DNA of 57,794 bases, from positions 1 through 57,794 of the IMG/VR virus record IMGVR_UViG_3300037313_000591; one strand, written 5' to 3'. Numbering within the stretch: position 1 is the first letter of the stretch; every line of letters starts with the position of its first letter. This document shows, one piece after another, positions 1,534 to 57,794 of the stretch. The notes under the pieces are model-generated. The model was not told the DNA's origin, did not search any database, and saw nothing but the letters and a program-made list of their open reading frames with translations. Origin of the DNA: a virus (lineage: Duplodnaviria; Caudoviricetes). Both the position numbers and the translations under genes were made by a program.

Positions 1534-2001
1534 ATGGCCGACAAGCTCACCCCGAAGCAGGAGGCGTTCTGTCTTGCTTATGTGGAGACCGGGAACGCCA
1601 GCGAAGCATACCGGCGCGCGTACTCCGCCGAACGAATGAAGCCCGACGTGATCGCTGTCAAAGCGAGCGAATTACTCAAGAACGGTAAGGTCACGGTAAG
1701 GGTGCAAGAACTGCAGGGCGATATCCAGAAGCGCCACGAGATCACGGTTGATGACCTGATCGCGGAGCTCGAGGAGGCGAGGGTGGCAGCATTCTCCGCG
1801 CAGACCCCGCAAACATCTGCCGCGGTAGCCGCCACGATGGGCAAGGCAAAACTGCTTGGCTTCTTGAAGGAAAAGACGGAGATCAGCGGCCCGAACGGTG
1901 GCCCGATCCAAACAGAATCACGAAAACTCCAGGATCTAACCGACGATGAACTCCTCGCCCTTGCAACAGGCCGCGGCGAAGGAGCTTCTAATCCGGCGTA
2001 G
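1534..2001 (+). CDS. terS: terminase small subunit
   Basis: N-terminal LTPKQEAFCLAYVETGNASEAYRRAY HTH, EISGPNGGPI motif, directly upstream of terL. Confidence 0.93.
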   Translation: MADKLTPKQEAFCLAYVETGNASEAYRRAYSAERMKPDVIAVKASELLKNGKVTVRVQELQGDIQKRHEITVDDLIAELEEARVAAFSAQTPQTSAAVAATMGKAKLLGFLKEKTEISGPNGGPIQTESRKLQDLTDDELLALATGRGEGASNPA

Positions 2002-3427
2002 GGCGCGTCACAGCATTCTTCATTTCGTCAACGCGATCGACGTTCCCGGTCGCCCGATCGGTAACGACCCAGACAGTGAGATTTTTGAGCCGGTCGAGAC
2101 GACGATCGCGCACCACCATCGCCTCCTTCTGGAAAAGCTCGATGAAGTAAGCAAGACGCCGCACGGCCGCATGATGATCTTCATGCCGCCAGGTAGTGCG
2201 AAGTCGACGTATGCTTCGGTCGTATTTCCGTCCAAGTATTTGGGCGAGAAGGGTGGCCGGAAGTTGATCCTGGCGAGCTATGGCGACGACCTTGCACGCA
2301 AGATGGGCCGCCGAACACGCTCGATTGTCCGTCAGTCTCGATACAAGGGCGTCTTTAACGCGCAGCTGGCCAACGAATCGCAGGCCGCGCAGGAATTCGC
2401 GCTGACCAACGGTAGCGAGTACATGGCGTGCGGCATCCTGTCGGGCATCACCGGCAACCGTGCCAACGGCATCATCATCGACGACCCGATCAAGGGCCGC
2501 GAGCAAGCGAACTCCGAGACCGTCCGCGCCAAGACGTGGGACGCCTACGAGGACGACCTGAAAACCCGCCTTATCCCGGGCGGCTGGATCGTGCTGATTC
2601 AGACCCGGTGGCACGAGGATGATATCGCCGGGCGCATCCTACCTTCAGACTGGAAAGGTGAGAGCGGTCGAATCCTGTGTAAAGACGGTAACGAATGGGA
2701 AGTACTCTGTCTGCAGGCACGCTGCGAGGTCGAAAACGATCCGCTAGGCCGCAAGCAAGGCGAGTACCTCTGGCCTGAATGGTTCGACCGCAAGCATTGG
2801 GCGCAGTTCGAGCAGAACGCGCGAACCTGGGCCGCGCTATATCAACAGCGGCCGACGCCGCTTGATGGCGACTTGTTCAAGCCGGACCAGATCAGCGTGA
2901 TCGACGCACTGCCAGAGGCGCAAATCCAGTGGGTGCGCGGCTGGGACTTGGCAAGCACGACCGATGGCGACTATACCGCCGGCGTGAAGCTCGGCCGACT
3001 ACCGGATAACCGCTTCGTCATCGCTGACGTCGTGAGGCTGCGTGTTGGACCCGAACGGCGAGACGCGGCACTCGTAAATACTGCGGCGCTCGACGGCAAG
3101 AAGACGAAGCAGAGCATCCCGCAAGACCCGGGGCAGGCCGGCAAGACGCAGGTTCTGTACCTCACGCGCTCGCTAGCTGGCTACAACGTCGTTACCTCGC
3201 CAGAGACCGGTGACAAGGTGACACGCGCCGAGCCGGTCGCAGCCCAGGTCAACGTCGGCAATGTGTCGATGCTGCGCGGCGATTGGAATGCAGCGCTTAT
3301 CAATGAGCTGCGAGTTTTCCCGAACGGGACGAATGACGACCAGGTGGATGCGCTGTCGCGGGCATTTGGTGAGCTGCTCGTACCAAAGCATGCAATGAGT
3401 CTGAACCTGAGAAGCGCAACCAACTGA
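1946..3427 (+). CDS. terL: terminase large subunit
   Basis: Walker A-like MPPGSAKS, Walker B IIIDDP, QTRWHEDD, nuclease motifs GWDLA and DDQVDA. Confidence 0.95.
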   Translation: MNSSPLQQAAAKELLIRRRARHSILHFVNAIDVPGRPIGNDPDSEIFEPVETTIAHHHRLLLEKLDEVSKTPHGRMMIFMPPGSAKSTYASVVFPSKYLGEKGGRKLILASYGDDLARKMGRRTRSIVRQSRYKGVFNAQLANESQAAQEFALTNGSEYMACGILSGITGNRANGIIIDDPIKGREQANSETVRAKTWDAYEDDLKTRLIPGGWIVLIQTRWHEDDIAGRILPSDWKGESGRILCKDGNEWEVLCLQARCEVENDPLGRKQGEYLWPEWFDRKHWAQFEQNARTWAALYQQRPTPLDGDLFKPDQISVIDALPEAQIQWVRGWDLASTTDGDYTAGVKLGRLPDNRFVIADVVRLRVGPERRDAALVNTAALDGKKTKQSIPQDPGQAGKTQVLYLTRSLAGYNVVTSPETGDKVTRAEPVAAQVNVGNVSMLRGDWNAALINELRVFPNGTNDDQVDALSRAFGELLVPKHAMSLNLRSATN

Positions 3428-3435
3428 CCGAATCC

Positions 3436-4857
3436 ATGGCCGATAACGACATCACTTACAACCGCATTCCGGCAGAAGTGCTAGAGCGGTGGAAAGTCGT
3501 GCGCGATGTGTGCTCGGGCGACCAGGCGCTGCGCAAGGGCGACTACCTGCCGTACCTGAACAAGACCGACACGTCGGAAGAGAACGTCGAGCGCAACCGC
3601 GCCTACCGCGAGCGTGCCGTGCTGTACGCCGCAACCGGCTTTACGTTGGCAGGCTTGATCGGCCTCGCGTTCCGACACCAGCCAAAGCACAACCTGCCGG
3701 AGAAGCTGAAGTATCTCCTGAAGGACGCGGACGGTGCCGGCATCAGCATTTACCAGCAGGCGCAAGCGACGCTGGCGAACGTGCTCGGTCCGGGGCGGCA
3801 TGGCCTGTACACGGACTTCAGCAGCACGCTCAACCGCCCGATCATCAAGCCGTACTTGGCCGAAGACATCATCAACTGGCGTCCTACCGTCATCGGCGGC
3901 AAAACAGTCCTGTCGATGGTTGTCCTGCATGAAGACGCGCAGGAAGTCGACAAATACGCTACCCGAACAGAAAGCCAATGGCGCGAGCTGTTCCTGAATG
4001 AGCAAGGCCATTGCGCCTGCCGACTGTGGCGGTTGAAGGATGGGGTGCCCGAGATCGTCCAAGTCGAAGATGCGGACGGCAAGATGGTCGATGAGCTGGT
4101 CTTGCGCTCGGTCGGCGCTCCGCTCGACTACATCCCATTCGAGTTCGCTGGCAGCGAGAACAACGACCCGTCAATCGATCCAAGTCCGCTGTATGGGCTG
4201 GCAAAGGTCAACCTGGCGCACTTCCGCAATTCCGCAGACTACGAAGACGCCGCCTTCATGCACGGCCAGTCGCAGTTTTGGATCTCAGGTCTGACGGAGG
4301 AATGGCGCGACCACCTCGAGAAGCAGGGTATGTACATCGGCGCACGCAAGCCGATGCTGCTGCCGGAGAAGGGCGCATGCGGTTTCGCCCAAGCGCAACC
4401 TAACATGGTCGCCAAAGAGGCAATGGAGCACAAAGAGGCGCAGATGGTCGCACTCGGAGCCCGTCTGATTGACCGAACCGCTGCAGTAAAGACGGCAACG
4501 CAGTCCGAAGGCGAGCGCGAGGCTTCGACCTCTATCCTGGCGCTGTGCGTATCGAACGTGAGCGAGGCATACCAGCGCTCGATCCGTTCCTGCGCCCGCT
4601 ATCTCGACATTACCTTGCCAGAAGGCGAAGACCTCTTCGAGATCAACCAGGATTTCACGACCGTATCGAACGATCCGATGACGATTTCCGCACTGGTCGG
4701 TGCATGGCAGCAAGGTCTGATGGCGAAAGAGGACGTACGCAGCTACTTCCGGCGCCAGGGAACGATCGATCCCGAGCGCACTGACGAGCAGATCGACGCC
4801 GATCTGAAGAAGTCGCCACCACCAACACTGGCCGCGCCGGCAAAGCCAGCGGCATAA
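3436..4857 (+). CDS. portal protein (DUF4055-like)
   Basis: 473 aa directly after terL; AHFRNSADYE and MVALGARL motifs. Confidence 0.88.
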   Translation: MADNDITYNRIPAEVLERWKVVRDVCSGDQALRKGDYLPYLNKTDTSEENVERNRAYRERAVLYAATGFTLAGLIGLAFRHQPKHNLPEKLKYLLKDADGAGISIYQQAQATLANVLGPGRHGLYTDFSSTLNRPIIKPYLAEDIINWRPTVIGGKTVLSMVVLHEDAQEVDKYATRTESQWRELFLNEQGHCACRLWRLKDGVPEIVQVEDADGKMVDELVLRSVGAPLDYIPFEFAGSENNDPSIDPSPLYGLAKVNLAHFRNSADYEDAAFMHGQSQFWISGLTEEWRDHLEKQGMYIGARKPMLLPEKGACGFAQAQPNMVAKEAMEHKEAQMVALGARLIDRTAAVKTATQSEGEREASTSILALCVSNVSEAYQRSIRSCARYLDITLPEGEDLFEINQDFTTVSNDPMTISALVGAWQQGLMAKEDVRSYFRRQGTIDPERTDEQIDADLKKSPPPTLAAPAKPAA

Positions 4858-7118: not shown

Positions 7119-7511
7119 ATGCTCACCGACGCACAAAAGGTCGACTGCCGCCGCTGGATGGGCTACCCGACGCTGAATGCAGGGTATCCGGACACCATCT
7201 ACACGGTGGCGTGGGATCGCTCGCAATTTCCCGTGTCGATCACGGAAAAGCTCGCGAACCTGACCGACGGCGAAGAAAGGGTGCTCATCGAGAAGTTCCT
7301 GGACCCGCTGGCAAGTTTGGAGCAGGGCATCCTGGCTGTGGCCGATAACCTCGATACCGATGCCGCAGCCGTCTGGAAGCGCAACACCAACGAGCAGGCA
7401 GACCGCGAGCGTCTGTTCGACTCGGTGCGCCGCCGGATGTGCGCGTTCCTTGGCTTTAAGCCAGGACCGGAGCTGGGCGGCGGTAACGGCATTTCGCTGG
7501 TGCGAGCATGA
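7119..7511 (+). CDS. head-tail adaptor/connector (putative)
   Basis: MLTDAQKVDCRRWMGYP... DNLDTDAAAVW; position and size. Confidence 0.65.
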   Translation: MLTDAQKVDCRRWMGYPTLNAGYPDTIYTVAWDRSQFPVSITEKLANLTDGEERVLIEKFLDPLASLEQGILAVADNLDTDAAAVWKRNTNEQADRERLFDSVRRRMCAFLGFKPGPELGGGNGISLVRA

Positions 7512-7948
7512 CTGTCATCGCATGGGACGGCCGCACGATGGCCGCAGACAAGCGGATGGACTGCAATGGCTATCCTGCGACAGTCACCAAGATCTATCGC
7601 ATGCCGGACGGCGCCCTGCTTGGCGGCTCCGGCGACTCGGACGTCATCAGTGCTTTGCGTCATTGGTATCAGGACGGCTGCAACCCATCTGCCTACCCCG
7701 ACAACCGGGCGGAGCAGGGCTGTTATGCCACCTTGATGGTAGTGACTGCGGCCGGAGAAGTCCGGCTGTTTCTATCTAGCCCGATACCTATCCAGATGCA
7801 CAACAAGAAGTTCGCCATCGGCTCCGGCGCAGACTTTGCGATGGCGGCAATGTACCTCGGGTACAGCGCACGCAAGGCGGTGGAAGTAGCCTGCGCACTA
7901 GATACCGGCTGCGGCAACGGAATCGACACACTGAGACTCGAACCATGA
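7508..7948 (+). CDS. HslV/proteasome-beta-like Ntn hydrolase
   Basis: Thr directly after Met (M-TVIAWDG..AAD), AIGSGADFAMAAM, AVEVACALD. Confidence 0.7.
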   Translation: MTVIAWDGRTMAADKRMDCNGYPATVTKIYRMPDGALLGGSGDSDVISALRHWYQDGCNPSAYPDNRAEQGCYATLMVVTAAGEVRLFLSSPIPIQMHNKKFAIGSGADFAMAAMYLGYSARKAVEVACALDTGCGNGIDTLRLEP

Positions 7949-33703: not shown

Positions 33704-33986
33704 TATAGTCAAACGTCTACGCGACAAGGGAGTGACGCGCTCCCGCGACGATATCGCCCTTGACCACGGTTACGAAGGCGAACTGCGCTTTGGCGCGGTA
33801 GGCCTGGTGCCGACCGCAACGCTGACCGAGCCGGACGACGAGCACTTCCGACCTATCATCCCTGCGCTCGAGCACGCGGAGCTGGTCGTCATTCGCGTGG
33901 ACATGATGATGTTCCGCGGCATTGAGCGGGACAAGGGTGGAGCAGGGTACGAGCAGGAGTGGTCAGTGCGGATCATCGGGTACTAG
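33696..33986 (+). CDS. putative SOS-inducible protein
   Basis: Start codon lies inside the SOS box; stop overlaps the int stop (CTAG). Confidence 0.65.
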   Translation: MHSIVKRLRDKGVTRSRDDIALDHGYEGELRFGAVGLVPTATLTEPDDEHFRPIIPALEHAELVVIRVDMMMFRGIERDKGGAGYEQEWSVRIIGY

Positions 33987-35236
33987 GCCGCTACTTGGCG
34001 TTTGAGAGGCACAACGTTCCACTCGTCGCCACGCTCGCACGCAATAAGAAATCGCGCCCAAAGCTCCAAAGCTTCGCGACGCTCTGGAATTTCCTCCCGC
34101 ACGTCGTATATGCCCTCCATTCCCTTCAACGTATGGTTCAGGGCGATTTCCGAAATTTCGCGCGAGACGCCAAGGTTTCGCATATGCCCCTTTGCGGTGC
34201 TGCGCGTATCATGCGGAGTGAAACGCCGGGTAGCAATGTGGCCGCGCTTGAAGGCTTGGTCAATCGAGTTCCATAGGGTTGTTTGCCCTGCGTGTGAATC
34301 TGCAGTTTGAGGCGTTCGACCAGGCAAAACCCATTCTGACCCGTCCGCCAACTTTCGCAATTCCTCAAACCATCCGGCGACCGATGCGGTCAGCGGGACC
34401 AGAAAGCCTACTCTCGTTTTTACAGAGTCATCAGGCACAAACCAGGTTCCGCGCTCAAAATCCACGTGCTCCCACTTCGCCTTGAGTAGCTCGACAGACC
34501 TAACGCAGGTTGCAAGCAATATTCTCAGGGCAAGCGCGTTTTCCGTGCCTATGACGTCAATTCCGGAAAGCAGATGCCGTAGCTCATCCTTAGATAGCAT
34601 CACTCGTTTGCGCACTGGCGGGCGCGGGCCAAGCAGGGCGGCGAGCTTGATCCCGGTAGCTGGATTCACACGTATGAGCTGGCGACCGATCGCATGGTCA
34701 AATAGCTTGCTGACCGTACCAAGGATGCGCCTTTGAATTGCCCATGTTCTGCCTGACTTCTCCAGCATGTCGACGACATCTTCGGCCGAAACATCCTTTA
34801 CTTCAAGCGAGCCAAGGCTAGGAATAATCACGTCTTCAAGGTCGCTCTTACGATAGGCAACTGTCCGCTCCGCGTACTGACCAGTCTCAAGTGCCTTTTC
34901 TATATAATCCTTCACAAGCATGCGTACTAGCCATGCATTACGCTTAGCGAGTCGCTCCTTTCGCTTTTCAGACGCCGGATCCAGCCCCTTGTCGACGTCT
35001 ACGCGCTTCTCTGCCGCCAACTTCCTTGCTGCAGAAAGGCTCAGATCAGGGTAGTTCCCTAGCGTGAGTTCGCGCGGCCTTCGAGCGATCATGTAGCGCA
35101 ATACCCAGGTCGCAGTTCCTGCTTTGGACAAAGTGAAGGTTAAGCCACCGCCATCTGACTTGGCAACTGGCTCACCCGCGGCGACCCACCGCCGGATTTG
35201 CATGTCACTGAGTAGATTGGTTCCTCGGCCGGCCAT
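33983..35236 (-). CDS. int: tyrosine integrase with an N-terminal arm-binding domain (P4-like)
   Basis: DGGGL..W..RY...LG.YP..SL..AR arm domain; catalytic R (TCVRSVE), HDTR, LNH, Y. Confidence 0.95.
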   Translation of the reverse strand: MAGRGTNLLSDMQIRRWVAAGEPVAKSDGGGLTFTLSKAGTATWVLRYMIARRPRELTLGNYPDLSLSAARKLAAEKRVDVDKGLDPASEKRKERLAKRNAWLVRMLVKDYIEKALETGQYAERTVAYRKSDLEDVIIPSLGSLEVKDVSAEDVVDMLEKSGRTWAIQRRILGTVSKLFDHAIGRQLIRVNPATGIKLAALLGPRPPVRKRVMLSKDELRHLLSGIDVIGTENALALRILLATCVRSVELLKAKWEHVDFERGTWFVPDDSVKTRVGFLVPLTASVAGWFEELRKLADGSEWVLPGRTPQTADSHAGQTTLWNSIDQAFKRGHIATRRFTPHDTRSTAKGHMRNLGVSREISEIALNHTLKGMEGIYDVREEIPERREALELWARFLIACERGDEWNVVPLKRQVAA

Positions 35237-43804: not shown

Positions 43805-44328
43805 GCGGCCACCTCATCTTTCTGCGCCTCTGCAGCCGCGTATTCACTCGCCAGAATCTCGACCATGTGCTCGTTCAGCTTGGCTGTGGTCGCGACGTAG
43901 ACGGCGTCGCTACGGTCAAGCAATGCGAAGCTGCCGCCGAAGATCAGGGCGCCCCAAGTTGTACCCATCGCTTGCAGTACCGGGTCAAAGGGAACGTCGT
44001 CAGTCGGACACCAGTCCTTCCACTGCGCCTTCAAGTCGGCCAGCTCGGCCTTTTCCTCCGCAGTGGCCTTCACGATCGAATTGCGCGGGCGCTGCTGGCC
44101 GAGCGATTGCCTGTCAGGGCACGTCCAAAGGCGAGTCGGTTTGGGCGGCTCGAACACGAGTCCGCAGATGCGGTAGCCTTGCGTGTTATTGCTGACGACC
44201 AGATGCTTAGCGCCGAAGTGTGCTTGAAAAGCCTCGCCGCGCTTACGCAGGGCCGCCAGCTTTTCATTGCGCTCACTGAGCACGGACAGCACTTCCGGGG
44301 CGCTCGTCTTGTAGTAAGCCTTGCTCAT
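43801..44328 (-). CDS. hypothetical protein
   Basis: GAGGAG RBS before MSKAYYK; EILASEY C-terminal motif. Confidence 0.6.
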   Translation of the reverse strand: MSKAYYKTSAPEVLSVLSERNEKLAALRKRGEAFQAHFGAKHLVVSNNTQGYRICGLVFEPPKPTRLWTCPDRQSLGQQRPRNSIVKATAEEKAELADLKAQWKDWCPTDDVPFDPVLQAMGTTWGALIFGGSFALLDRSDAVYVATTAKLNEHMVEILASEYAAAEAQKDEVAA

Positions 44329-44460
44329 TACGTCTGCTCCTCGTTTGTTATTAGGTGTGGCGCACCGGGCGGCCTTCACTCTCTCGTGAGTGGCGGCGGT
44401 CCTTACTACCCGCTCGCGCTTCCGGTCTGGGTACTAGCCAGACAGTTCCGGTCATGCGGT

Positions 44461-44602
44461 TCACCACACTAGACCCGGCTGGAGTTGAACCAGCGACTAG
44501 GACCATTGACGGTCGCGCGTGTCCGTCGATCCTGCGGCTTGCCTTTCGGCTTCGCATCCGCCCTTGACTCTACCTAGCTGAGTTACGGGCCTAGTGTGGT
44601 GA
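44461..44602 (-). ncRNA. tRNA-like RNA with an extended acceptor stem and a two-hairpin insert replacing the anticodon loop
   Basis: Acceptor AGGCCCG/CGGGTCT extended to 17 bp; D-arm ACTC-AGCTAGGTA-GAGT; T-arm GCTGG-TTCAACT-CCAGC. Confidence 0.7.
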
Positions 44603-44629
44603 CTGGCTTACGACCAGTCAGGCGTCCTG

Positions 44630-44869
44630 CTACTGCTTGAATCGTGCAACTGCCAACTCGTATTGGCGGGAGTACTGCAGCTCGCGCTCGATGGCGCTCA
44701 GCGCAATCTCCAAGCCGTCGTTGAGGCCGTTGATGTACTGACTCTCGTGCTGATGAACGGCGTTGCGAGCGGCCTGCACGACTTTCTGGAGTGCTTCGAG
44801 GCGCTCGCTGGCAGCGGGCATGATCGACCCCGCGACGCGCTGCTGGCTAATCTGTGGTGTCACATTCAT
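44630..44869 (-). CDS. hypothetical protein
   Basis: AGGAG RBS; NGL.DGLEIAL. Confidence 0.55.
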   Translation of the reverse strand: MNVTPQISQQRVAGSIMPAASERLEALQKVVQAARNAVHQHESQYINGLNDGLEIALSAIERELQYSRQYELAVARFKQ

Positions 44870-47199: not shown

Positions 47200-47466
47200 A
47201 TGACGAACCATAACGACGAGTCGACCGAACATCGAGTTCTCGCCGCGCTCCGCGAGATCAATCCACAAAAGCGTGCCGAGCTTGTGGCTGTGATCGAGGC
47301 GATGGCAGCTGCGTTTCCGAAACCAGCCAAGGCGTCGATTACCAAGCCGGCGTCACTTAGTCTTGTGGTCAGCGACGGCCGCGTTGTCCGCGCTGGGAAG
47401 CGCCCTGGCCATCACCAGGAGCGAATTTTTCCCGCTCTCAGTCATTCTGCGGTACTCACTAAGTAA
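47200..47466 (+). CDS. small protein resembling the CI C-terminal helical domain
   Basis: TEHRVLAALREINPQKRAELVAVIEAMA; converges on and overlaps the 3' end of cI; start uncertain. Confidence 0.5.
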   Translation: MTNHNDESTEHRVLAALREINPQKRAELVAVIEAMAAAFPKPAKASITKPASLSLVVSDGRVVRAGKRPGHHQERIFPALSHSAVLTK

Positions 47467-47754
47467 AGCCGCTTCATCCTCTGATACCCACTGCAGGTTC
47501 GGCGACTGACGTTCGCCGCGGCCGTCTGTGCCGCTCGGCGCCGTATCGTCGCCAACGCCCGTCATAAGCCATTCGGGCGTCGTCCCAAGAACCTCCGCAA
47601 CCTTCTTGATGCGGTTACGGTTCGGCGCGGTCCCATCCTCGTTCTCCCACTGCTGAACAGTCTGCCAAACCACGCCCACGGCCTTCGCAAGGGCCTCTTG
47701 GCTATGGTAGCCGCGCTCGATGCGCTTCTGCTTGATTCGTTGATGGATGCTCAT
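47353..47754 (-). CDS. cI: CI-like repressor (XRE HTH, no S24 peptidase domain)
   Basis: RIKQKR...SQEALAKAVGV.WQTVQQWE...P...I.KVAEVLGTTPEWL; 133 aa; divergent from cro. Confidence 0.85.
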   Translation of the reverse strand: MSIHQRIKQKRIERGYHSQEALAKAVGVVWQTVQQWENEDGTAPNRNRIKKVAEVLGTTPEWLMTGVGDDTAPSGTDGRGERQSPNLQWVSEDEAALLSEYRRMTESGKNSLLVMARALPSADNAAVADHKTK

Positions 47755-47767
47755 TCCGCAACTATGC

Positions 47768-47829
47768 CAAGAAGGACTAGTACGCGATACACAGATTTTT
47801 CTTGTGTCTGCTAGATTTTCTAGTACAAT
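47768..47829 (+). promoter_or_regulatory. oR/pR region with three operators
   Basis: CAAGAAGGACTAG (47768), CAGATTTTTCTTG (47792), CTAGATTTTCTAG (47811); -35 TTGTGT and -10 TACAAT. Confidence 0.7.
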
Positions 47830-47836
47830 GGCGTTC

Positions 47837-48106
47837 ATGGATACCTCATCTCACCAAGCGCTTTCTCGCGCAATTGCTCAATACCCGACTCTGAAGGCGT
47901 TTTCGGACGCTCTTGATGTTCGCTACCAGGTCGTTCAGCAGTGGCTCGTCAACGGCGTGCCAGCTGAGTATTGCCCGCTGATCGAAAAGTTGACTGGCGA
48001 GCGCTGCGAAGACCTGAACAGCAAAGTTGATTGGGCATTCATCCGATCGAACAAACCAGGGCGCACCAAGCGCCAAAGGGTCGCATCAAAAAATTCTAGG
48101 CATTGA
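47837..48106 (+). CDS. cro: Cro/YdaS-like regulator
   Basis: L.V.YQVVQQW...VPAEYCP.IEK.TG..CEDL..VDW; probably leaderless. Confidence 0.8.
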   Translation: MDTSSHQALSRAIAQYPTLKAFSDALDVRYQVVQQWLVNGVPAEYCPLIEKLTGERCEDLNSKVDWAFIRSNKPGRTKRQRVASKNSRH

Positions 48107-53144: not shown

Positions 53145-53458
53145 AGATCATCACGAGGCAGAAGTGCGCCGATGAAGTGGTTGAGAAGTGGGAGCGCGTC
53201 TACGGTAAGGCGCAATACGGCGCTGACAAGCTTGTGATTCTTCGACTGCTGAAGCAGCTACCAAAGCCAGTCGACCCTGATGAGGTTGATCGCATCATCG
53301 GCAATACAAGTTGGACATACACCCATCATTGCAGCCAGTGCGGACAGCAGAGTGAGGTCGTTATCGAGGTCGGCCAAGAGCCTGATTATGAATCAGCGAC
53401 CGCATGGTTATGTGTTCCGTGCGTGCGCAAGCTGGCGAAGTTTGCGGAGGGACTATGA
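53141..53458 (+). CDS. zinc-finger protein
   Basis: CSQCG...LCVPC; AGGAGG RBS. Confidence 0.55.
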   Translation: MKIITRQKCADEVVEKWERVYGKAQYGADKLVILRLLKQLPKPVDPDEVDRIIGNTSWTYTHHCSQCGQQSEVVIEVGQEPDYESATAWLCVPCVRKLAKFAEGL

Positions 53459-53826
53459 AGATCATTGTTTGCGGTGGCCGTGATTTCAACAATACGTCTG
53501 CGGTGCGCCATGCCCTGACCGCGGCGCACGCGAAGCGCCCGATCGAACTCCTGATCGAGGGCGGTGCAGCCGGTGCCGATCGGCTGGCACGCGAATGGGC
53601 GGGCGCAAATGGCGTACTGCATGTGACCGTTATGGCTGACTGGAAGCGCTACGGGCCAGCTGCCGGTCCGCTTCGCAATGCCGAGATGCTGCGCGAGTAC
53701 CAGCCTGACGGCGTGATCGCTTTCCCGGGCGGGAAAGGTACTGCAGACATGATCAAGAAGGCTCGCCAAGCCGGCGTCAAGGTTTGGGAGCCGTTCGCTC
53801 AACACAGCTACGAAGGTGCCGAATGA
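53455..53826 (+). CDS. DUF2493/YspA SLOG-family protein
   Basis: IIVCGGRDF, GGAAGAD, AGP.RN..ML, AFPGG.GT.DM. Confidence 0.85.
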   Translation: MKIIVCGGRDFNNTSAVRHALTAAHAKRPIELLIEGGAAGADRLAREWAGANGVLHVTVMADWKRYGPAAGPLRNAEMLREYQPDGVIAFPGGKGTADMIKKARQAGVKVWEPFAQHSYEGAE

Positions 53827-54203
53827 TCGTCGTCCATCTACCTTTTCCGGACTCGAGACTAAATCCGAACCGCTGCAAGGGCAAGCACTGGGCCGCAACC
53901 GTCGCCCTACGCAGGTCTGCCCGGGAAGCCGCGACGCTCCTCACGAGGCAGGCCAGCCGCGGTGTGACGTTCCCAATGGGGCATGAGGTATCGCTGAAGG
54001 TGGTCTTCGTCCAGCCAGATAAGCGACTGAGGGACCGAGACAACCTCATGGCTAGTTTCAAAAACGCGATCGATGGCGTTGCCGACGCTCTCGGAATTAA
54101 TGACGTCCAGTTTAACCCGGTCACCGTCTGCCGGGAGTACGGCCCCAAGCCAGGGAGCGTGCGCATCGAAATAGGCGGTAAGCCAGAAGTCCAATCAGCG
54201 TAA
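53823..54203 (+). CDS. rusA: RusA-like Holliday junction resolvase
   Basis: LPFP...LNPN, PDKR.RDRDN...K..IDG.ADALG.ND..F. Confidence 0.8.
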   Translation: MIVVHLPFPDSRLNPNRCKGKHWAATVALRRSAREAATLLTRQASRGVTFPMGHEVSLKVVFVQPDKRLRDRDNLMASFKNAIDGVADALGINDVQFNPVTVCREYGPKPGSVRIEIGGKPEVQSA

Positions 54204-54796: not shown

Positions 54797-55122
54797 CTGA
54801 TCGTGAGCTGTTAGACCTGGCAGCAAAGGCGGCGGGGATTACTCTTGATTGGCAAGAAGGCTGGAACGGGATGCCTGACTCCGCATCAAATATGGGCCGT
54901 GTTTGGAGCCCTTTGACCGACGATGGCGACGCGCTGCGGCTAGCCGTGAAGCTGAACATGGAAGTATGTTCGCATGCGGACGCCGATATTGGAGGTATTT
55001 CCTGGGCTGATGCGTCGGGCCACGCTTTCGCTTATATCGAATTGCCTCACGACGGCGACCAGATGGCCGCAACCCGTCGCGCCATCGTCCGCGCTGCCGC
55101 TGAAATCGGGAGGTCCGAATGA
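54793..55122 (+). CDS. conserved phage hypothetical protein
   Basis: MTDRELL.LAAKAAG...W.PLTDDGDALRLAVKL...ATRRAIVRAAAEIG. Confidence 0.7.
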   Translation: MTDRELLDLAAKAAGITLDWQEGWNGMPDSASNMGRVWSPLTDDGDALRLAVKLNMEVCSHADADIGGISWADASGHAFAYIELPHDGDQMAATRRAIVRAAAEIGRSE

Positions 55123-55478
55123 ACGCCCCAACCAACCAAGCAATCCTCGAAGAAGCCCCGCAAGCCGACAGCCCCTTCGTCACCGTCATGAAGACATGGG
55201 CACGCTGGATGACACTAACCGACAGGCAGCACGCAGGCGGCTGGGCGCACCCGCAGGACGTGAAGGAGTTTATGCGCGCAGGGGAGGCGGTCGATACGAT
55301 GGTTAACGATTTGCCAAGTTCGCACCGGTGGGCGATCTACCGGGCGTATGGCATCGCTACCGTGTGGCGTTTCCCGGCTTTGTCGCTGGCTGATACGGTG
55401 ATCGAGGCTGAGAACCTTCTGACGCCGAGGATGCTGCGGAACGTGGATGTGCGAAGATATTTCGCTGATTCCCGTTGA
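55119..55478 (+). CDS. putative late antiterminator/regulator (Q position)
   Basis: Last early-right gene, ahead of a promoter-terminator pair; W..W and D.M...L....R.AI pattern. Confidence 0.5.
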   Translation: MNAPTNQAILEEAPQADSPFVTVMKTWARWMTLTDRQHAGGWAHPQDVKEFMRAGEAVDTMVNDLPSSHRWAIYRAYGIATVWRFPALSLADTVIEAENLLTPRMLRNVDVRRYFADSR

Positions 55479-55484
55479 AAACTA

Positions 55485-55513
55485 TTGCGTTCGGAAAATA
55501 CTTATATTAGTAT
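55485..55513 (+). promoter_or_regulatory. candidate late promoter (pR'-like)
   Basis: TTGCGT, 17 bp, TAGTAT. Confidence 0.45.
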
Positions 55514-55551
55514 GGTTGAGCTAGATTCCGTTACTGCGCTCTAGCGACACG

Positions 55552-55587
55552 AAACCCGCCCCGAAAGGTCAGCGGGTTTTTGTTTTT
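55552..55587 (+). terminator. tR'-like terminator
   Basis: AAACCCGC-(CC GAAA GG)-GCGGGTTT followed by TTGTTTTT. Confidence 0.8.
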
Positions 55588-55720
55588 CGGCGTCATCCAG
55601 TACACGGGCAATAAAACCCACTCTGGCACCGGCACGCCGCCAACTGCCGGTGACACCTAAATCATAGGAGCTAGCAATGAAGCGAGAAGGTATCGGTTTG
55701 GCTGGTGGTATCGGCGGCGC

Positions 55721-55951
55721 ATGAGAATCTCTACGTTCACCGTTCTGATCTACTTCGGCATGCTGGTCTTCGATGCTGCCGTACTTGGCGGCTTCGCGTA
55801 CCTCGTTGCTGAAAGAGGATGGTCGGCATGGTGGATGCTGTTGGCAGTCCTGATGTGCTCAGGATCGAATCCTAGCAAGATCATCGAAGCGAATAAGGAG
55901 GCGTCATGCGTAACGAAGGTGCAGGAATCGCCTGACAATAAGGCCAAGTAG
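55721..55951 (+). CDS. small two-TM membrane protein
   Basis: Hydrophobic, GWSAWW motif; coupled to a 15-codon upstream ORF (55677..55724) that carries the RBS. Confidence 0.55.
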   Translation: MRISTFTVLIYFGMLVFDAAVLGGFAYLVAERGWSAWWMLLAVLMCSGSNPSKIIEANKEASCVTKVQESPDNKAK

Positions 55952-56306
55952 CGCGTAACTTCGGGATAAGCGCGAGCCTAGTGAAAGCCTAGGCGCCACA
56001 CGCATGCATCCAGCAGAAGTGATCTAGACACTTGAGGCGTCAGTCTCCGCTGGGTGCAGCCGTGTGGTAAATGCGTAGGGAATTCCGGTTGATGACCGGC
56101 TAAGCCGTAGTCCATGACGCCGAACGCGACGGCAAACTCCTCTTTGGAAGTCATGGCGACCACACGCTTCACTGGCGTAACCAGTGACCACACGCATGCA
56201 GGCTTGCTGGAATTCCGAGAGGGTCAACCCGGTGGCCCGGTAGTGAGTCTACAGCCGTGTGGTTAAGCGCAGCAATGCGTAGGGTCGGGAGATCCCAGTC
56301 GCCACT
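55951..56306 (+). ncRNA. late-leader structured RNA array
   Basis: Two CCACACGCATGCA...CAGCCGTGTGG modules, several hairpins, and an rRNA H62-like hairpin. Confidence 0.6.
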
Positions 56307-56343
56307 AATTGTCTCCTCCAAGACGTCCTAGTTTTGGATTTCG

Positions 56344-56376
56344 CCGCCTGTCGCAGCAATGCACAGGCGGTTTTTT
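56344..56376 (+). terminator. intrinsic terminator closing the RNA array
   Basis: CCGCCTGT..GCA-GCAA-TGC..ACAGGCGG followed by TTTTTT. Confidence 0.8.
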
Positions 56377-56434
56377 ATTTAGAGGTTCGCCGCACGAAGC
56401 AGCGCGGCTAGCCTCAACACGATTGAGGCAACCA

Positions 56435-57794
56435 ATGCCGTTCCCGCCAGAGCTTCCTGTCCCGACCTACGCGAAGGGCACGATGCCCGTTGGTACGCCG
56501 GTTAAGGTGTTTGCGCCGTACGTTGTGCCAGCATTTACCTTGCCGGCAGTCTCGCTGGGCGGAATCGTCACCAGCGTGACGCTGCAAAGCACGACGGCGA
56601 TGGATCAGGCTAATGTGCCGTTCACGTTTGCGCAGCCCTTCAAGCGCGGCGACCTGGCTCCAGACTGCGCTCTTGTCGGCGCGATCGCTGGCAAGACGGA
56701 TATTCCGCTACAGGTGAACGTCAAGGCGACGCACGATGACGGATCGGTGCGCCATGCGATCATCAGTGGCGTGCTACCGAGTCTGCCAGCCAGCGCGTCG
56801 GTTGTGATGGGTCTGAAGCGTTCCGCTCCGGTAGCGAAGGGTGCGAACGTTCCGCTGCCGAGCAATCTACCGTCGGCAAAGCTGACCATCGCAGGCGTCG
56901 CATACACCGCCGCACCGAAGGCCGGCGATTTTACCTACGTCTGGCTGGCCGGTTCGCTACTAAGCGACAGTGTAGCCAACGTCTCGTTCGTTGACGCCTC
57001 GGGAAATCCTCACCCGACCCTGACCGCACAGTTCTCGGTGCGCGCTTCTAGCAGTGGCGCCGTACGCGTCGATGCCGTCATTGAGCACTGCAAGGCATAT
57101 CAGTCGACCGCTGACATCACGTACGACGTCACCATCGCAGCTAATGGCGCGACCGTGTACAGTCAGGCTGGTCTCGTCCACACGCCTTGCGCCCGCTGGA
57201 AGAAATCGTTCTGGTACGGCACCGCGCCGGCTCTGCACATCAAGCACGACACCGCATACCTGATCGCTACCAGGGCTGTACCGAACTACGACCAGAGCAT
57301 CAAGATTTCGGAATCCGTGCTGGCCGGGTACGCGACGCAACTCGCGAGCGGCAAGTTCGCTCCGATGGGTTTCGGTAACCTGCAGCCGGCAATGCCTACG
57401 ACAGGCGGACGCCCGGATCTCGGCATCATGCCGGATACCTACGTCGCAGCAGTCCTCTCGATGGACAAGCGCGCCAAGGACATCATGCTCGCCTCCGCCG
57501 ATGTGGGAGGCAGCTGGACTGCGCATCGCCGCGACGACAGCAGCGGCCCGATGAAGGGCATGCCGCTCAGTGTTCTGTGCTTCCCGTACTCTACGGTCTA
57601 CGGTAGCTCAGGCGACTGCGCAAACCCGATGACGGGCAAGAACGAATACCTGCCGAAGCTGGTAACGACGTCGAAGGGCAACTTCGACAGCAGCCACCAG
57701 CCCGGGTTGTACTACCTGCCATATCTCCTGACTGGTGATTTCTACTACCTGGAAGGCCTGCACTTCTGGTGCGCCTGGAACGCCTACAACTCGA
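56435..57794 (+). CDS. 5' part of the stand-alone PcRGLX/YetA-like protein (continues at position 1)
   Basis: ATG 56435 after GAGG, open to the window end; QVNVKATHDDGSVRHAI, HPTLTAQFSVR, GGRPDLGIMPDTY, SHQP..Y.PYLLTGD. Confidence 0.85.
   Translation, partial: MPFPPELPVPTYAKGTMPVGTPVKVFAPYVVPAFTLPAVSLGGIVTSVTLQSTTAMDQANVPFTFAQPFKRGDLAPDCALVGAIAGKTDIPLQVNVKATHDDGSVRHAIISGVLPSLPASASVVMGLKRSAPVAKGANVPLPSNLPSAKLTIAGVAYTAAPKAGDFTYVWLAGSLLSDSVANVSFVDASGNPHPTLTAQFSVRASSSGAVRVDAVIEHCKAYQSTADITYDVTIAANGATVYSQAGLVHTPCARWKKSFWYGTAPALHIKHDTAYLIATRAVPNYDQSIKISESVLAGYATQLASGKFAPMGFGNLQPAMPTTGGRPDLGIMPDTYVAAVLSMDKRAKDIMLASADVGGSWTAHRRDDSSGPMKGMPLSVLCFPYSTVYGSSGDCANPMTGKNEYLPKLVTTSKGNFDSSHQPGLYYLPYLLTGDFYYLEGLHFWCAWNAYNS

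Follow-up and report, generated by a model that had tools for sequence, protein, structure and literature searches.

The window, i.e., the whole stretch of DNA analysed here, corresponds to a complete virus record in IMG/VR (57,794 bp). The record is circularly permuted, and the gene starting at 56435 leaves the end and resumes in frame at 3-1007. Its predicted gene order matches that of a temperate, lambda-like phage, with the following landmarks:

1534-4857: terminase small and large subunits and portal
33983-35236, minus strand: integrase
47353-47838, minus strand: repressor
53404-54203: RusA-like and SLOG-domain genes
55119-55478: 119-aa protein, the last rightward early gene
55475-55502, plus strand: promoter-like site (TTGAAA-16-AATACT), candidate late promoter right after the 119-aa ORF, position kept in relatives
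about 55552-55587, plus strand: terminator-like hairpin and T-run, ~50-85 nt past the promoter-like site
55721-55951: 76-aa ORF, hydrophobic membrane-type protein

The integrase match was to a general phage integrase family. The terminator-like hairpin at 55552-55587, which was read from the sequence and is also present in relatives, is absent from the listing of the consensus scan. After this first terminator come the 76-aa ORF, the RNA-module region and the first gene upstream of the terminase, and because of this place in the gene order "late leader" is a plausible description of the module region. For the 119-aa protein we found no match in Pfam, PHROG or NCBIfam, and its 69 homologues are all unnamed. 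Its AlphaFold model (pLDDT 82) gave no fold match in the PDB at E up to 0.001, with only weak similarity to sigma-factor chains. Since it lacks both a family and a fold match, the label of Q-type antiterminator or regulator is unproven for this protein.

Some other features of the surroundings deserve mention. Besides the 76-aa ORF, the stretch from the first terminator to the RNA modules contains an ORF of 15 codons (55678-55725); two relatives (L004 and L006) have kept both, and neither has a family match. The first gene past the leader (56435-57794 plus 1-1007) codes for a protein of about 788 aa across the record ends, which weakly matches a PcRGLX-like N-terminal domain (22.6 bits against a cut-off of 22.1). 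It is unusual to find a polysaccharide-lyase-like protein encoded right before the terminase. ORFs for HNH-type endonucleases were found in or beside the leader of some relatives, at about 2620-3030 in L009 and upstream of the promoter-like site in L013 and L018.

The module region itself (55951-56376) contains the following elements, where H0 stands for the short hairpin that precedes each module, P1 for the stem closing the module and K for a helix that closes a second domain downstream:

55951-55974, plus strand: hairpin with conserved loop GUAACUUCGGGAUAA, occupying other positions in relatives
55976-55994, plus strand: H0a, GCCTAG-TGAAAGC-CTAGGC, abutting module 1 with a 1-nt spacer
55996-56067, plus strand: module 1, 72 nt, P1 followed by a 2x2 loop, a 10-bp stem and two hairpins
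56070-56080, plus strand: copy of AATGCGTAGGG, matching the 3' half of the unit 2 hairpin H2 plus AGGG
56112-56156, plus strand: long hairpin CCAUGAC...GUCAUGG inside the first K domain
56159-56166, plus strand: ACCACACG, 3' strand of K helix 1, pairing with CGUGUGGU at 56061-56068
56169-56187, plus strand: H0c, TCACTGG-CGTAA-CCAGTGA, abutting module 2 with no spacer
56188-56262, plus strand: module 2, 75 nt, with P1 formed by 56188-56194 and 56256-56262
56259-56305, plus strand: compact K domain of unit 2, GUGGU (56259-56263) with GCCAC (56301-56305)
56310-56376, plus strand: sRNA-like double hairpin containing CUCCUCC and an intrinsic terminator, related to RF02278 at a sub-threshold score

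The original prediction had described here an array of two structured RNA modules with common ends, preceding hairpins and a repeated AATGCGTAGGG, and all of these elements are real and lie where it had placed them. The two modules have identical 13-nt 5' ends (CCACACGCATGCA at 55996-56008 and 56188-56200) and identical 12-nt 3' ends (CAGCCGTGTGGT, ending at 56068 and 56263), AATGCGTAGGG follows each of them (56070-56080 and 56274-56284), and GACCACACGC occurs at 56158-56167 and 56186-56195. The module stems correspond to the inverted repeats I1 and I3, and the alternative pairing with the next CCACACG corresponds to I2. In module 1, P1 pairs CCACACG (55996-56002) with CGUGUGG (56061-56067). 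The inner stem of module 2 is rich in G-U pairs (5 on the sense strand vs 3 on the antisense strand), and the K domain of unit 2 encloses the hairpins H2 (56267-56280) and H3 (56282-56295); L014 and L010 contain domains homologous to it. Folding each module with its hairpin reproduced the structures described before, with z-scores of -5.9 for module 1 and -2.9 for module 2. Over the whole 446 nt the score was nearly equal on the two strands (z = -5.2 on the plus strand and -5.3 on the minus strand), so that the z-score alone picks no strand. In the closest relative, the long hairpin at 56112-56156 has a G-C pair replaced by U-A, with both arms changed and the pairing kept. As the AATGCGTAGGG that follows module 1 copies the 3' half of the unit 2 hairpin H2 together with AGGG, it is the trace of a duplication of one unit from which the window array arose.

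Other parts of the first description stood only in part. The region was said to be bounded by terminators; its 3' end is indeed an intrinsic terminator, but its 5' border is the stop codon of the 76-aa ORF. It was also said to hold no credible ORF, and mechanical ORFs of 50-71 aa do overlap it; the one starting at 56114, in the long hairpin, has ATT in place of its ATG in the closest relative. Finally, the CA/GC 2x2 internal loop reported for both stems belongs to one subclass only, whereas other modules pair straight through; the two loop positions were unpaired in 13/16 and 12/16 aligned modules.

The GUAACUUCGGGAUAA hairpin that opens the region has a life of its own. Its loop (55955-55969 in the window) is invariant while the stem covaries (GCUGU/ACAGC, AUGC/GCAU, GCUGC/GCAGC), and the exact 15-mer was present in 11 fetched records including the window, some of which are overlapping pieces of one contig. 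The hairpin was also found in L006, L016, L018, L038, L039, L052, L059, L060, L062 and L070, and its position varies, before H0 in the window and within the K domain in other leaders. It resembles an independent mobile RNA motif and may bind a protein. Within module 1, a hairpin with a 5-bp stem and the 7-nt loop AUCUAGA (56022-56028) has the size of an anticodon loop, with U at 33, a purine at 37 and CUA in the centre; it was called by no tRNA program and the likeness may be a coincidence. A kissing contact between the loops of H2 and H3 was considered and dropped, the compatible bases having been seen by eye only.

Loci with related modules were fetched via neighbouring proteins and via conserved motifs, and only a curated set was used for counting modules, as a relaxed pentamer scan falsely hits coding regions. 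This set has 50 distinct modules, and their design is a short hairpin H0 followed by CCACA, a variable folded cargo and UGUGG. The interiors fall into 34 clusters at 70% identity, whereas pairs 1-5 (CCACA with UGUGG) are nearly invariant; the 3' strand UGUGG (TGTGG) was unchanged in 49/50 modules and the variants of the 5' strand mostly keep a wobble pair. Pairs 6 (CG 43, UA 5, AU 1, GU 1; n = 50) and 7 (GC 23, AU 11, UA 10, CG 4, mismatches 2; n = 50) covary. The earlier proposal of a conserved carrier stem presenting unrelated, internally folded cargo is thus borne out by these 50 modules and 34 clusters. A C-C/A-G internal loop is conserved in one subclass of modules.

Covariation, one of the checks suggested at the outset, was found among the homologous modules. 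Over 16 aligned modules (H0, P1, inner stem and H2) 89% of the cells were paired and 17/28 pairs changed on both sides, a level reached by 0/500 shuffles, while controls in which the alignment was slid gave 26-42% paired; the aligned sequences are related, so these shuffle statistics overstate independence. Covariation supports H0, pairs 6 and 7 and the inner stem. A hairpin of at least 5 bp ending 0-2 nt before CCACA was found in 37/38 modules vs 14% of 20,000 random positions. The sense strand folded better in 24/34 modules (mean -3.2 kcal/mol, Wilcoxon p = 0.0017) and contained more G-U pairs (91/964 vs 50/910 on the antisense strand). Units are placed between genes or in leaders, always on the strand of the flanking genes. 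Among loci with the gene for the 119-aa protein, 21/33 carried a sense-strand module no more than 1.8 kb downstream; this figure comes from the relaxed scan, which misses three short-form loci without H0 (L025-L027) and gives false positives elsewhere.

As a control, the bare pattern CCACAC-N30-60-GTGTGGTGAA proved unspecific, with 1/81 matches in the fetched loci (L149) showing the family hairpin and inner stem. The exact two-end pattern had no match in viral contigs, and the hairpin-H2 pattern had none in 401 sampled Burkholderiales genomes or in 3 Massilia or Burkholderiaceae genomes. The cultured-phage collection contained no match to the window region or to the units of two relatives, and a look for RNA runs containing the sequence gave none. 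That a real, conserved family of structured-RNA cassettes exists here is highly probable. Its lineage is one of uncultivated soil phages, whose hosts are probably Burkholderiales.

The new element of the structure is the predicted K helix, by which UGUGG also pairs with a downstream CCACA and closes a second structured domain. When only the sequence downstream of the module was given to RNAalifold, UGUGGUG paired with CRCCRCA, stacked on a hairpin, in 15/15 late-leader sequences. The 8 early-operon domains yielded a matching K helix whose extension shows two-sided changes, and in 8 short-form units a reduced P1 and K were predicted side by side on the common strand. K was predicted independently in three subgroups (15 late-leader, 8 early-operon and 8 short-form). 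In the window the K helices are formed by 56061-56068 with 56159-56166 and by 56259-56263 with 56301-56305 (K2, 5 bp only) on the plus strand, and by 44462-44469 with 44355-44362 on the minus strand. The alternative pairing of a third CCACACG (56160) with 56061-56067, noticed at first as an isolated option, is one case of this conserved helix. Under constrained folding P1 was the minimum-energy fold in 41/41 units, and forcing K cost 0.7-21.6 kcal/mol (median 8.9 over the 41 units, with some K partners mispicked by the script). With P1 at the energy minimum and K at a median of 8.9 kcal/mol above it, K requires a cut or a factor. The K domain gave no Rfam tRNA match, and the idea that it is a true tRNA mimic ending in ACCA was rejected, as CCA follows the K 3' strand in only 5/15 sequences (alignment read by eye).

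The system had been described as a feature of the late leader, but it is not restricted to it. A third unit was found between two genes of the early leftward operon:

44355-44620, minus strand: third unit
44600-44620, minus strand: its H0
44464-44599, minus strand: its module, with tRNA-like cargo
44355-44469, minus strand: its K domain, closed by GUGUGGUG with CGCCACAC

The exact 21-nt H0 of this unit is common to 15 loci, which hold 12 distinct units, and early-operon units lie 20-30 nt before a ribosome-binding site. In this cargo both the T arm and the D arm are present, and the place of the anticodon arm is taken by a long insert. Against the Rfam tRNA family (RF00005) the module at 44464-44599 scored 21.7 bits (E = 0.056), below the 29 bits of the threshold, and the homologous cargo of a relative (L206) reached 42.1 bits.

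The window was also compared with its closest relative. The flanks align with mismatches that are only scattered. At unit 1 and at the early-operon unit the relative has another cargo, exchanged exactly between CCACA(C) and (N)UGUGG; at unit 2 it has another K domain as well as another cargo. The region appears to be part of a conserved modular slot for RNA cassettes, with exact replacement of the cargo between close relatives.

Some of the cargos are tRNAs or resemble them. Those of L205, L206, L211 and L064 scored 32.6-51.8 bits on the Rfam tRNA model (gathering score 29) and that of L010 scored 37.8 bits. The L205 cargo is called by ARAGORN as a tRNA-Arg(ccg) at 7479-7561, within a module at 7471-7567, and true tRNAs adjoin the modules in L007, L039 and L059. 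In tRNA-like cargo the acceptor stem runs on into the closing stem. In the window ARAGORN found 0 genes, and RF00005 had no match at E up to 10 in 55400-56600, i.e., modules 1 and 2 are not tRNA-like. The possibility that H0, one nucleotide and CCA mimic the 3' end of a tRNA was dropped in the absence of a supporting feature.

The late leader closes with an element of a different kind. The original prediction had seen a terminator at its end, and there is an intrinsic terminator, but the element is itself sRNA-like. The segment 56310-56376 matched RF02278 with 41.9 bits (E = 9.4e-7) over the full length of the model (1-64 of 64) without reaching the gathering score of 50. It has the traits of this family, i.e., a CU-rich anti-Shine-Dalgarno stretch, two hairpins and a 3' U-run, in the form of a UGUCUCCUCCA start, hairpins at 56317-56338 and 56343-56371 and UUUUUU. 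Nine matches of 32-45 bits were found in 8 related loci, and no other part of the leader is kept so widely. The stretch from the late promoter to 56310-56376 showed no promoter-like site. In Burkholderia cenocepacia, ncS03, ncS05, ncS27 and ncS62 are members of RF02278, described in the cited accounts as abundant double-hairpin sRNAs whose function is there called unknown (PMC5688073, PMC4603805). The window element shares with them the UGUCUCCUCCA start, the two hairpins, the U-run and the end-to-end alignment, but it stays below the gathering score and lies inside a phage operon leader, and the likeness covers only the last 67 nt of the region. It links a little-understood family of toxic sRNAs of Betaproteobacteria with phage late transcription. 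In L028 (5300-5840) two small genes on the opposite strand are located between the K domain and the double hairpin (L028/L029); the pair looks like a toxin-antitoxin-like or HTH pair.

As we read it, the slot runs from H0 through CCACA, a cargo hairpin of 39-166 nt, UGUGG and the K domain to another CCACA, which is also able to pair with that UGUGG; its cargo may be a tRNA, a tRNA-like RNA or an unrelated fold. A tsRNA-like double hairpin with terminator follows in the late leader. The best explanation that we can offer is a slot for RNA cassettes that can be excised, with a leader-trailer stem serving in processing, and this whole statement, processing included, we put forward tentatively, at somewhat less than an even chance. 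The CCACA/UGUGG helix would be the processing stem, and host RNases would cut the cargo from the long early or late transcript; cargo of the tRNA type would be handled by RNase P and the 3' tRNA-processing enzymes, the rest by RNase III or RNase E. After the cut, H0 would cap the 3' end of the upstream RNA, while the freed UGUGG would re-pair with the downstream CCACA and the downstream RNA would begin with a closed helix. Modules 1 and 2 of the window would then be small RNAs released in this way. The two pairings of UGUGG would account for a frozen strand whose two partners drift in a wobble-compatible manner.

Of the functions first suggested for the modules, the RNase-processing handle is the one that we keep, on the strength of the L205 cargo, an ARAGORN tRNA above the Rfam tRNA threshold, since a working tRNA must be cut out and excision would be needed there. 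Neither a decoy role nor one in antitermination is supported by anything measured. Antitermination was abandoned, including that of a nut- or put-like antiterminator: the modules are placed after the first terminator and therefore cannot help the polymerase through it. What speaks against excision is that P1 is the minimum-energy state in 41/41 units, that modules 1 and 2 of the window are not tRNA-like and that its K2 helix has only 5 bp. Extended leader-trailer pairing slows RNase P. Furthermore, generic RNases fail to explain why five pairs are conserved in sequence and not in structure alone, which suggests either a specific factor or the double pairing constraint by itself. RNase III sites of the T7 or rRNA type lie within a helix of roughly two turns; the basal helices of the units measure about 12-19 bp. 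RNase P has been documented to process non-tRNA phage RNAs, e.g., M3 and C4 (PMC11143913).

Several other explanations have to be weighed against excision. A protein of the phage or of the host could recognise H0 and the CCACA/UGUGG junction by their sequence and use them as a handle, as Ro does with Y RNA, the cargo remaining attached as the effector or decoy part of an RNP. Such a scaffold would account for five pairs conserved in sequence beyond mere pairing and for the C-C/A-G internal loop kept in one subclass, and the modular cargo with tRNA-like domains recalls the YrlA-type Y RNAs. We consider it improbable, however, as the Y RNA and YrlA families of Rfam gave no match, the TROVE domain of Ro is absent from the phage record (positive controls were found), no candidate binding protein was identified and the tRNA cargo of L205 would need release to work. 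That the leader is cis-regulatory and switches between P1 and K as mutually exclusive states, which would set downstream expression or termination at the tsRNA-like terminator, is quite improbable: P1 was the favoured state of 41/41 units (median margin 8.9 kcal/mol), the short form has a reduced P1 together with K, neither P1 nor the K 3' strand overlaps the terminator or the ribosome-binding site, and there is no conserved pocket for a ligand or factor because the cargos are unrelated. All this stands against the two conserved partners that UGUGG has in all subgroups and the location of the units before a terminator (late leader) or 20-30 nt before a ribosome-binding site (early operon), both of which speak for a switch.

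Phages commonly carry tRNAs in such a place, and the modules might be remnants of tRNA or tRNA-like genes and their spacers, retained only as a stable structured spacer. True tRNAs are found beside or inside the modules of relatives and the window modules are tRNA-sized (72 and 75 nt), yet mere decay is hardly probable for an array with strong covariation, 34 distinct types of well-folded cargo, a precisely conserved H0 and junction, a copy in a second operon and a handle that stays intact through cargo replacement. Very improbable, in our opinion, is a function at the DNA level, in which the CCACA...TGTGG hairpins would be single-stranded DNA recombination sites similar to integron attC and would mobilise the cargo. 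The phage does encode an integrase, the core is conserved and inverted around a variable centre, and the cargo is swapped exactly at the cores. Nevertheless, these cores differ from the attC consensus (compared by eye), their orientation always follows transcription, the cargo codes for no protein but is a folded, covarying RNA whose G-U pairs lie on the transcribed strand, and the flanking homology of H0 and the K domain explains the swaps via ordinary recombination. Coming back to excision, it could be taken further: the H0/CCACA/UGUGG/CCACA junction might be a universal adaptor for RNA cassettes, the equivalent of integron cassettes at the level of RNA, into which any small structured RNA (tRNAs, tRNA mimics or decoys and regulators aimed at the host) could be plugged within early or late transcripts and released by a dedicated cut-and-refold, with a specific nuclease or binding protein reading the five-pair junction. 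This generalisation is possible but doubtful.

The nearest known things each share one trait with the slot and fail on others. An Rfam search of the whole window at the gathering threshold gave 0 matches, and the modules are covered by no Rfam family. C4 and isrK (RF01695, RF01394) had no match in the whole window at the gathering score, nor at E up to 10 in 55400-56600 and 44200-44800, which sets the window apart from the M3/C4-type RNAs processed by RNase P; a retron is not indicated either, RVT_1 being absent from the record. In rRNA operons, a leader-spacer helix around the 16S or 23S rRNA is cut by RNase III. As in that case, the flanks here pair at the base of a structured RNA, and there too an RNA is freed from a long transcript, with tRNAs in the same transcripts; but here the cargo is only 39-166 nt long and interchangeable, and the base of the helix is a fixed pentamer with a second partner downstream. 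Phage tRNAs and small stable RNAs, e.g., those of T4, are co-transcribed and excised by host tRNA-processing enzymes. Like these clusters, the units are small RNAs in phage operons, and some of their cargos reach tRNA thresholds. Y RNAs and YrlA have a Ro-binding stem and a variable, tRNA-like module, and the paired ends of our modules are likewise a conserved stem carrying a variable, sometimes tRNA-like effector domain; in YrlA, however, the stem joins the tRNA-like module differently, while here the closing stem continues the acceptor stem. Integron attC sites resemble the slot by their conserved inverse cores around a variable hairpin and by cassette-like exchange, and differ in that here the features are those of an RNA on the transcribed strand, with covariation of the flanking hairpin, no gene cassettes and another core sequence.

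In the literature on the toxic sRNA and on tRNA-like prophage sRNAs of Burkholderia and on RNase P with C4 or tRNA-like phage leader RNAs we found no described counterpart of the H0/CCACA/UGUGG junction with its K domain, which does not imply that none is in print. The kind to which the slot belongs, i.e., processed small RNAs embedded in phage operons, is already known; new here are the K helix, the third unit in the early operon and the tRNA or tRNA-like cargos of some relatives. Phage operon leaders and tRNA slots hold many unexplained small RNAs, and this lineage is a tractable case: at least 34 different cargos have been swapped through a five-pair junction that itself does not change, and both real tRNAs and tRNA mimics are among them. 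Should the junction prove to be an adaptor for processing or for protein binding, it would represent a new means by which phages express and exchange small RNAs; it would also yield a list of candidate RNAs directed against the host and a small natural tag by which designed RNAs could be freed from long transcripts.

One more structured domain, CCGACGC...CAGCGGCCCGGCCCCGCUG...GCGUCGG, is located about 100 nt upstream of H0 in many relatives, where it is conserved, and not in the window. We found it in L009, L010, L011, L012, L013, L015, L028, L051, L053, L054, L056, L066 and L067. In L028 this domain is followed by H0 and then by an ORF, with no cargo between them, an arrangement that looks like an empty slot.
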